This document shows, one piece after another, positions 60,548 through 62,485 of a stretch of DNA of 64,000 nucleotides. A model generated the notes under the pieces. That model was not told the origin of the DNA, searched no databases, and saw nothing but the letters and a program-made list of their open reading frames with translations. Source of the DNA: Candidatus Hermodarchaeum yapensis. GTDB lineage: Archaea > Asgardarchaeota > Hermodarchaeia > Hermodarchaeales > Hermodarchaeaceae. The translations under genes were made by a program, and so were the position numbers. How positions within the stretch are numbered: position 1 is the stretch's first letter; every line of letters starts with the position of its first letter. The DNA lies in contig JAEOSK010000008.1 in the NCBI GenBank assembly GCA_016840405.1, positions 28,119-92,118 on the forward strand, given 5' to 3'.

Positions 60548-61207
60548 ATGCTATTCGTCAAAAGTGATGAACCTATGACTCAGGCGTCTGATAGGTGGGA
60601 GAAGCTTCGACAAGAGATTCTTGTTTGCCAAAGATGCCCTCTTGCTCAATCACGAACTCAAGCAGTCCCAGGAGTGGGTCCACCCACTGCGCGTCTTGTA
60701 ATAATTGGAGAAGCTCCAGGTTACAGGGAGGATGTCCAAGGAGAGCCCTTTGTTGGCTCTGCAGGTAAACTTCTAACTAAACTGCTTGAACAGGCTGGGA
60801 TTAAACGTGAATCGGTCTTCATCACAAATGTCGTTAAATGTCGTCCACCTGAAAACCGCCAACCTACTCAAAGTGAACGAAAGTCGTGTCACTCGTATCT
60901 AATTCGACAATTAGAACATATCCAACCAAAAGTCATTGCCCTTGTGGGTCGAGTGCCAACCGAAACCCTACTTGAAACACGGGGCAGTATGGGAGCATTA
61001 CATGGGAAAAGCTTTGAACGGAACGGGCGCACCTTTTTCGTTATGTACCATCCTGCTGCTGGCCTTTACAATCAGACTCTGGTTCCTATCATGGAAGAAG
61101 ACATGCGTAAACTGAAAAAACTCCTTGAGAAGACAGCGGATTCCGGAGATCAACAGGAGGAAGGTCAACTTCCCTTGAGTGACTTTTTTTCAAACCAAAA
61201 GAAATGA
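60548..61207 (+). CDS. udg: Family 4 uracil-DNA glycosylase with C-terminal PIP box
   Basis: CQRC, GEAPG, PFVG, NVVKCRPP.NR, HPAA, QLPLSDFF. Confidence 0.96.
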   Translation: MLFVKSDEPMTQASDRWEKLRQEILVCQRCPLAQSRTQAVPGVGPPTARLVIIGEAPGYREDVQGEPFVGSAGKLLTKLLEQAGIKRESVFITNVVKCRPPENRQPTQSERKSCHSYLIRQLEHIQPKVIALVGRVPTETLLETRGSMGALHGKSFERNGRTFFVMYHPAAGLYNQTLVPIMEEDMRKLKKLLEKTADSGDQQEEGQLPLSDFFSNQKK

Positions 61208-61225: not shown

Positions 61226-61690
61226 TTATTTTTCATCTTCAAGTGATGCTTCAAGGGCAGCTCGCCGACGGGCGAGAAAAGACTGTAATTCGCCTTGCAT
61301 TTGGGCTCGGATACCCATTCCACCTGTTGCTGCCATTGGTGATGTGGGAGTTTGTGGGGGAGGTGCAGCCATACCAGGAGCAGTAGGAGGAGCACTTAGA
61401 CTTGGAGGTGGTGTAATTCCAGGACTGGGCGGAGCAGAAGCCTGTGGAGTATGAGCATCGGCGATAGTAGCGGGAGCAGAAGGAGCACGGGTTCCACCCA
61501 TTTTGAGTACCGTATCGACTTGGGTTTCCAACGTGGATAGTCGTGTGCGTACTTCATTAAGCTGTTTTTCGAGAGAACCGACACCATTAAGGAATATCGT
61601 TGCTACCCGTTCGAGAACTTGGGCGAGTTCTTCGATTTTTTTGGCAGCATCCTTTTCTTCCGCTATGAAATCAAAACCACCGAGTGCCAT
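61226..61690 (-). CDS. Coiled-coil / proline-rich / LARRR-helix protein (WAVE/WASH/VASP-like architecture)
   Basis: SD-like AGGTGA upstream. Heptad region, Pro-rich linker, then MQGELQSFLARRRAALEASLEDEK. Confidence 0.7.
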   Translation of the reverse strand: MALGGFDFIAEEKDAAKKIEELAQVLERVATIFLNGVGSLEKQLNEVRTRLSTLETQVDTVLKMGGTRAPSAPATIADAHTPQASAPPSPGITPPPSLSAPPTAPGMAAPPPQTPTSPMAATGGMGIRAQMQGELQSFLARRRAALEASLEDEK

Positions 61691-61816
61691 TCTCTATCGA
61701 ACTCACCTTAGATACATTGGTTTAAAACCTTGTGGGCTGAGTGGCTGCCCCTAGCAGTTTTTACGGAAAACCAATGTTAAATCTCTTCTTGTTACATTAT
61801 CAGATAGGAACACACG

Positions 61817-62485
61817 ATGATGGTTTTTTCTCAAATTTATCCCCGACTGGTTGCCTGGATATTAGACCTTCTCCATCGTCGCACCAAACGGGTGTTTATT
61901 GTTGAGCTCAACGGACTACAGGTTCAAATTTGTCCGCACGTTTTTAATCCATTGACAGGGCGAACAACGAGATTTTTCATCCAACATATGCAGATTCTTC
62001 CTTCATCACGTGTTTTAGAAATTGGAACCGGTACTGGCGCAATTGCAGCAGCGGCAGCTCAAGCAGGAGGTCACGTGACTGCTACAGATATCAATCCATA
62101 TGCTGTCCAATGTGCAAGAACAACAATGAGATTGAATAACCTTCAGAATCGTGTCTCCGTGTTGTCAGGCGACCTTTTTGAGCCAGTTCAAAACCAGACC
62201 TTTGACGTGATTTTATTCAATCCTCCCTACTTTGCCAGCAAAGCTTCAAGTTGGATTGCACAGGCTTGGTTTGCAGGGCCACAGTGTGAGTTAGTTGCCA
62301 GATTCCTCTCGGGAGCGCACCAGGTTCTTGCTAAAGGAGGGCAAATTCAGATCCTAATTAGTTCAGCTACTGTACTTCCTGCGATTTTGCAGATGATTCG
62401 AAAAGAAAGTTATGATATTCAGGTTGTTGCCCAATGTCGATTATTAGGACTGCTAGAAACAGTGTATTTATTCCAGCTTCTCTGA
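61817..62485 (+). CDS. HemK2/PrmC-like methyltransferase
   Basis: VLEIGTGTG, DINP.A, FNPPY. Confidence 0.9.
   Translation: MMVFSQIYPRLVAWILDLLHRRTKRVFIVELNGLQVQICPHVFNPLTGRTTRFFIQHMQILPSSRVLEIGTGTGAIAAAAAQAGGHVTATDINPYAVQCARTTMRLNNLQNRVSVLSGDLFEPVQNQTFDVILFNPPYFASKASSWIAQAWFAGPQCELVARFLSGAHQVLAKGGQIQILISSATVLPAILQMIRKESYDIQVVAQCRLLGLLETVYLFQLL

Follow-up and report, generated by a model that had tools for sequence, protein, structure and literature searches.

A widespread, Asgard-specific family of small coiled-coil proteins with a VASP FAB-like C-terminal helix

The gene P0001 encodes a Thor-type member of a widespread, Asgard-specific and uncharacterised family of proteins of about 150 aa. 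We tentatively read this family as an oligomeric adaptor or assembly factor associated with actin and predict from sequence comparison that it may bind actin. The gene lies at 61226-61690 on the minus strand of the window, the stretch of 64,000 nucleotides from Candidatus Hermodarchaeum yapensis that was analysed here, and is delimited by its translation and its homologues; the open reading frame comprises 465 nt, that is, 154 codons plus the stop. Its translation includes all segments quoted in the initial annotation, namely ATIFLNGVGSLEKQLNEVRTRLSTLETQVDTV, APPSP, TPPPS, APPPQ and GGMG...MQGELQSFLARRRAALEASLEDEK. The sequence TTTTAAA, read 31-37 nt upstream of the ATG (61721-61727, minus strand), could be an archaeal TATA box. 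The gene is solitary, with a convergent gene on one side (60548-61207, plus strand) and a divergent gene on the other (61817-62485, plus strand). Judged from their translations only, the former resembles a family-4 uracil-DNA glycosylase with a GEAPG motif and the latter a methyltransferase with an NPPY motif; in other lineages the family gene has no link with either of them.

The protein was initially described as three modules, a coil, a linker and a C-terminal helix, and this description is borne out by an AlphaFold2 model, by the heptads and by conservation; together these indicate that the layout is real and under selection. The model, built from a 23-sequence alignment, places helices at residues 5-64 and 125-153 (pLDDT about 90 in both) and leaves residues 65-124 disordered (pLDDT <50). 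The protein begins with an acidic and aromatic motif, MALGGFDFIAEEKD (residues 1-14, 61649-61690, minus strand, from alignments), in which G5, F6, D7 and F8 are almost invariant across the Thor-type subfamily, and whose Loki-type counterpart is MAEEFANFM. The coiled-coil helix that follows (residues 15-64, 61499-61648, minus strand) is supported by the model, the heptads and PDB sequence matches, and contains the stretches VATIFLNG.G.LE and ETQ, which are invariant in the Thor-type alignment. The disordered linker (residues 65-124, 61319-61498, minus strand) is rich in P, S, A and T and carries the APPSP, TPPPS and APPPQ segments; its mean identity within the subfamily is 36%. Conservation rises to a mean identity of 79% in the TPTSPM motif that precedes the C-terminal helix (residues 113-119, 61334-61354, minus strand), with P115 and S117 present in at least 90% of the subfamily and P118 invariant; the Loki-type equivalent is RPASPV. 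The C-terminal helix itself, MGIRAQMQGELQSFLARRRAAL (residues 125-146, 61253-61318, minus strand), is delimited by the model, the alignment and its score against the VASP FAB, and is followed by an acidic tail, EASLEDEK (residues 147-154, 61229-61252, minus strand), that varies between members in the alignments.

A word-indexed search with P0001 returned 64 near-full-length homologues of about 150 aa, of which the few with a named source are labelled Promethearchaeota or Thorarchaeota. A profile search of 5.8 billion proteins extended the family to at least 236 proteins, including some labelled Loki- or Hodarchaeota; every named match is Asgard, and none of the 236 proteins carries a Pfam domain. 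With a profile built from 38 diverse members, matches at E <= 1e-5 appear in 293 of 400 Asgard genomes, or 72 of 85 genera, mostly in single copy, and the P0001 gene is found in 17 of the 18 genomes of the family to which the window's genome belongs. At the same threshold the family is sparse in some actin-bearing genome families (5/31 genomes in f7, 4/22 in f10 and 0/12 in f12). Exhaustive phmmer comparison of P0001 with 1.84 billion representatives gave 12 matches and no convincing new relatives; in the only two matches of non-family length (336 and 468 aa) the alignment is confined to the coil and low-complexity sequence. A search of a protein atlas with P0001 found unnamed clusters of the same family and nothing else, and sequence searches of Pfam, NCBIfam and the PDB (E <= 10) produced sub-threshold coiled-coil or proline-rich matches alone. 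All named matches of the family are thus Asgard, and 119 of 121 Asgard genomes carry actin; this restriction to actin-bearing archaea agrees with the initial annotation.

Four parts are common to all family members: an acidic and aromatic N-terminal motif (MALGGFDF, MAEEFANFM and DDIEFMIDF are variants), the coil, a disordered linker rich in P, S, A and G, and a closing helix that follows the pattern h-h-x-E-L-K/Q-x-h-h-x-[KR]-x-[KR]. The Thor-type subfamily keeps VATIFLNG.G.LE, ETQ, TPTSP and A.M..EL..FL.RRR without change or almost so. The expected conservation of the FLN and LARRR motifs therefore holds within the Thor type, but it does not extend to the family as a whole, where E134 and L135 are the only invariant residues. 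The majority of members are of the Loki/Hod type, with the sequence ...PPGGPPPPPGGPPGGPG.ARPASPVSLRGAIMGELKxLFAKRK, and most of these have proline runs of P5-P8; the member in genome G137 has three poly-proline tracts. The polyproline character initially ascribed to P0001 is present in the APPSP, TPPPS and APPPQ segments but is weak, the longest run being PPP, which occurs twice, and members of the f13 and f14 types have no proline runs. Given P5-P8 in the Loki/Hod type, PPP in the Thor type and none in f13/f14, the proline tracts are a lineage feature and not a family constant. The suggestion that P0001 recruits profilin through its prolines is doubtful with runs of three residues, and profilin recruitment would not be universal to the family, because P0001 has PPP only and the f13/f14 types have none.

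The coil of P0001 consists of heptads without a break from residue 15 to residue 64, with hydrophobic residues at all 14 of the 14 a and d positions, a pattern kept across the family. In its second half Ile or Val occupies a as well as d. The PDB sequence matches of P0001, of its distant relative P0072 and of the family profile are trimeric coiled coils, namely autotransporter stalks, GCN4-pII fusions, reovirus sigma-1, Lpp and fibritin, and this suggests a trimer-like coil. The earlier proposal that the coil oligomerises is accordingly retained as probable on the strength of these sequence features.

The resemblance of the C-terminal helix to the VASP FAB, also proposed initially, turned out to be well beyond chance. 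Human VASP FAB is printed as residues 259-278 and the GAB as 223-APGLAAAIAGAKLRKVS-239 (PMC10340426). We took the 14 helix columns from the alignment of 38 members, picked after the resemblance was noticed, turned them into a weighted profile and scored both peptides against it. The FAB core scored 14.9 bits, a value equalled by 7 of 728,197 windows from the ORFs of at least 120 aa of the genome, one of which is the P0001 gene itself (a window frequency of 1e-5), and by 3 of 10,000 shuffles; the GAB scored -9 bits, which is matched by about one in ten windows and about half of the shuffles. The FAB aligns with no shift of register (I/L, M, x, E, L/M, x, x, L/M, F/L, A, K/R, R, K/R), so that the core pairs residue for residue with QMQGELQSFLARRR in P0001 and with AIMGELKSLFAKRK in the Loki type. 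Allowing for the many comparable motifs, we estimate the chance of such a resemblance at about 1e-3, which is unusual; a match of 14 residues can nevertheless be the product of convergence. The hydrophobic moment of the helix is 0.08-0.20 in the family, compared with 0.15 for the FAB, and this low moment together with the invariant Glu favours protein recognition over lipid binding.

Like Ena/VASP proteins, P0001 brings together a coiled coil that probably oligomerises, a proline-rich stretch and a FAB-type helix. VASP, however, has an EVH1 domain, a GAB and a C-terminal tetramerisation coil, whereas P0001 has none of these: no EVH1 domain is found in Pfam or NCBIfam searches (E <= 10), neither VASP_tetra nor another C-terminal tetramerisation coil is present, and the sole coil (residues 15-64) is N-terminal and of the left-handed heptad type, unlike the VASP tetramerisation motif. 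P0001 is also just 154 aa long and lacks long proline runs, and homology to VASP outside the 14-residue motif is undetectable by PDB sequence search or phmmer. The initial annotation correctly excluded an LKKT-type WH2 motif and a terminal Trp. The WH2 model PF02205 does not match the family gene in the five genomes compared (G000, G260, G116, G142 and G114; E <= 10), P0001 contains neither LKK[TV] nor any Trp, and with its variable acidic tail it does not qualify as a WASP-family VCA region. On these comparisons P0001 is neither an Ena/VASP member nor a WH2 domain. Actin assembly factors that combine WH2 with polyproline, among them bacterial mimics like the trimeric autotransporter BimA, share the logic of a coil, probably trimeric in P0001, that would cluster flexible proline-rich arms ending in a short helix, but P0001 has no WH2 model match and no LKKT/V motif; the sole match between BimA and P0001 covers the proline-rich stretch (E 0.57), and P0001 is intracellular and archaeal.

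Gelsolin domains bind actin directly. A search for longer relatives uncovered two metagenomic proteins, P0134 and P0133, in which the family coil is joined to gelsolin domains. P0134 (L093:280-1323) consists of a gelsolin domain, the family coil, a linker and PVNLKGAILGEL (LKGAILGEL); its gelsolin domain matches the Thor gelsolin of PDB 7c2f (E 1.4e-6) as well as Heimdall and Loki 2DGel, and its coil is recognised by hhalign with a probability of 98%. P0133 (L094:973-2289) comprises a Ras/Arf-like GTPase, the family coil (62 bits) and a gelsolin domain that matches horse gelsolin (E 1.9e-11) and Loki 2DGel (E 4e-11). The two genes sit on two short metagenome contigs from different samples, and because they share junction and tail sequences they probably go back to one fusion event. 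Both end in a common acidic tail and a zinc-finger region, as in extended Loki gelsolins, and so share this Loki-type end with Asgard gelsolins (2DGel, Gel, GelX). P0001 differs from these gelsolins in lacking a gelsolin domain, the link being the fusion in the two metagenomic proteins only. The family coil was absent from six more gelsolin-domain genes, in which the P0134 alignment extends beyond the gelsolin domain. At the level of sequence, the fusions tie the family independently to regulators of actin.

No actin, profilin or gelsolin gene adjoins the family gene in any of 39 loci. The genome from which the window is taken has both actin and profilin. Its profilin-like gene (G000:C76:19845-20123; PF00235, 24.7 bits; L004) shares a contig with the family gene; it lies some 8 kb ahead of the window and about 69 kb from the family gene. 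The actin gene of this genome (C30:2-826) is interrupted by a contig end, and a full-length copy in G099 (L035) is identical to it over the 275 shared residues. In several f31 genomes (G312, G316, G317, G318 and G325) the match to actin extends over about 30 nt more and runs through one in-frame stop codon (TAA or TGA), which may point to a small insertion, an intron-like element or recoding within the actin gene.

In the genome family f20 the family gene is always directly downstream of P0132, a gene of 207 aa (L061:7251-7871; also in L054, L056, L058 and L109-L138) whose product is all-helical and belongs to no Pfam family. The pairing is kept across f20 genera in which P0132 identity falls to 44%. 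The model of P0132 (pLDDT 91) has three long helices and matches almost only BAR, F-BAR and I-BAR domains (arfaptin at TM 0.58-0.62, IRSp53 at 0.59), with weak E-values of 0.008-0.07. The predicted structure thus looks like that of an undescribed Asgard BAR-like family. P0132 occurs in 89 of 93 f20 genomes and in 6 of 7 f19 genomes; its pairing with the family gene is absent in f19, and the window's genome has no P0132 homologue. We considered whether the BAR-like orthologue in G137 (23.9 kDa, near 3.02 Mb) is Bar1 (24.73 kDa) or Bar2 (51.36 kDa) of bioRxiv 10.1101/2025.11.30.690169; it fits neither. Other genes recur near the family gene. One that is often found beside it in f19 and f20 (L054, L056, L058 and L061) encodes an Elf1-type zinc-ribbon protein whose acidic tail is long. 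In several f20 genomes the family gene is followed by a protein of 570-580 aa without a Pfam match (L054:8567-10303, L056 and L058), beyond which lie conserved unknowns of 366, 319, 379 and 438 aa and an AAA ATPase.

The family is probably expressed, as judged from the proteome detection of a putative orthologue. The G137 assembly, a single contig of 6,035,313 bp, is probably that of Lokiarchaeum ossiferum. Its family member has 152 aa and, besides its three poly-proline tracts, contains SLRGSIMDELKTLFSKRRT and a DDDDDD tail; an exact-sequence look-up of this protein gave no match. The gene upstream of it is Elf1-like (L151:2037-2657, monoisotopic mass 24.01 kDa) and probably corresponds to the entry GNAMCCOK_02218 of the proteomics tables that accompany bioRxiv 10.1101/2025.11.30.690169. 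Because the mass and gene index of this neighbour fit GNAMCCOK_02218 in the listed entries of these tables, we infer that the family member is GNAMCCOK_02219. In the listed rows, GNAMCCOK_02219 has values in every proteome column, with a mean log2 of 18.47, compared with 21.69 for actin and 18.55 for Bar2. It is not among the rows listed for the Lokiactin co-IP, and the listed co-IP rows with a log2 ratio of at least about 1.13 contain no entry of 16.13-16.14 kDa, the mass sought for the orthologue. Since the mapping to GNAMCCOK_02219 is indirect and the comparison covers the listed rows, this absence is weak evidence against a stable actin complex. GNAMCCOK_02218, the probable Elf1-like neighbour, is itself enriched in the listed co-IP rows (log2 1.36, adjusted p 0.034). 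For P0001, three RNA-library runs from different studies contain contigs of 180-287 nt that are 92-97% identical to sequence inside the ORF; they cover 61377-61686 and, DNA carry-over being possible, lend weak support to transcription.

The initial annotation likened the coil to those of BRK1 and CCDC53. WASHC3/CCDC53 and BRK1/HSPC300 are, like P0001, small proteins dominated by an N-terminal coil, and they form trimeric bundles; WASHC3 consists of a coil, a proline-rich stretch and then a short C-terminal helix, an order that P0001 resembles, and the FLN...E..L..R...ET pattern of the P0001 family recalls the CCDC53 helix. If the family were a true homologue of these WASH or WAVE subunits, one would point to the distant member P0072, whose CCDC53 match (24.6 bits, E 3.7e-5) is exactly at the Pfam gathering cut-off of PF10152 (24.6 bits), to the weak CCDC53 matches of 6 of the 38 members and to G113, in which the family gene is the top CCDC53 match of the genome. 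However, the P0072 match spans the coil and the proline-rich region and so takes in compositionally biased sequence, and PF10152 does not match P0001 at all. None of the 400 Asgard genomes has a match above the cut-off; 49 genomes are matched at E <= 0.1, none of them among the 18 of the window's own family, and only about 5 of the 52 matches in Asgard genomes fall on the P0001 family. PF10152 also finds matches in 5 of the 14 bacterial and archaeal genomes used as controls; by the standard set in the initial annotation, the coil therefore scores no better than generic coiled coils. Furthermore, BRK1 and WASHC3 chains are absent both from the PDB sequence matches of P0001 and P0072 (E <= 10) and from the best 60 PDB matches of the family profile, and we know of no further WASH or WAVE subunit, and hence of no partner for such a subunit, in Asgard archaea. 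The likeness to BRK1 and CCDC53 is thus not upheld, and common descent with these subunits appears very improbable.

Two further explanations concern the helix and the partners of the coil. The protein may be a membrane-tethered coiled coil of the DivIVA or the MinD/FtsA targeting type, in which the helix inserts into the membrane and the coil recruits proteins. The position of the helix at or near the C-terminus, the K/R cluster beside its hydrophobic residues and the presence of a DivIVA cluster among the weak structural look-alikes in the protein atlas (TM 0.45) would agree with this; however, the DivIVA match is that of a generic long helix, the hydrophobic moment is low, an invariant Glu occupies the helix core, many members have acidic tails after the helix, and in P0134 the helix is internal. 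We consider a membrane tether improbable. An alternative that we regard as unlikely, if less so, is that the family is a scaffold of membrane-remodelling or GTPase signalling machinery without direct contact to actin; the coil would oligomerise, and the N-terminal motif, the Ser-Pro motif and the C-terminal helix would dock the BAR-like neighbour, small GTPases and gelsolin-domain proteins. The pairing with the BAR-like gene throughout f20, the Ras/Arf-like GTPase in P0133, the null result with the WH2 model, the restricted distribution of the proline tracts and the finding that the probable orthologue of L. ossiferum is seen in the proteome yet is missing from the listed Lokiactin co-IP rows all speak for such a scaffold. 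Nevertheless, it leaves the specific match to the FAB core unexplained, both fusions contain gelsolin domains, which are direct actin binders, and the BAR-like pairing is limited to f20 and missing from the window.

The actin-linked adaptor or assembly factor that we tentatively prefer as a reading would work as follows. The N-terminal heptad coil would assemble several parallel chains, probably three, each with a flexible linker rich in P, S and A and, at its C-terminus, a helix that bears a basic patch. This helix would contact actin in the manner of the VASP FAB or of WH2-like helices, and the clustering of actin-binding sites could lead to filament bundling, tethering or faster elongation. 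In the Loki/Hod type the poly-proline tracts could additionally deliver profilin-actin.

Asgard archaea crawl and form dynamic actin-filled protrusions. The actin regulators described from them are profilins and gelsolins only, and recent papers state that machinery for nucleating or elongating their actin is still missing (PMC9433394, PMC13716822). The most far-reaching version of our preferred reading, which as a whole we think rather unlikely, is that the family is the missing Asgard actin assembly factor. It would then be a minimal oligomeric polymerase or bundler that binds filaments through its FAB/WH2-like helix and operates at protrusions in concert with BAR-like proteins and small GTPases; in the Loki/Hod types its poly-proline tracts would also feed profilin-actin, and its helix would be ancestral to, or early convergent with, the helices of Ena/VASP and WASP-family proteins. 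The family is small, abundant and widespread in Asgard archaea, which makes it a concrete candidate for the missing actin machinery. If it does not bind actin, it would still be a widespread Asgard-specific adaptor tied to gelsolin-domain, GTPase and BAR-like proteins. If it does, the principle on which eukaryotic actin polymerases work, clustered prolines combined with a short helix, would be older than eukaryotes.
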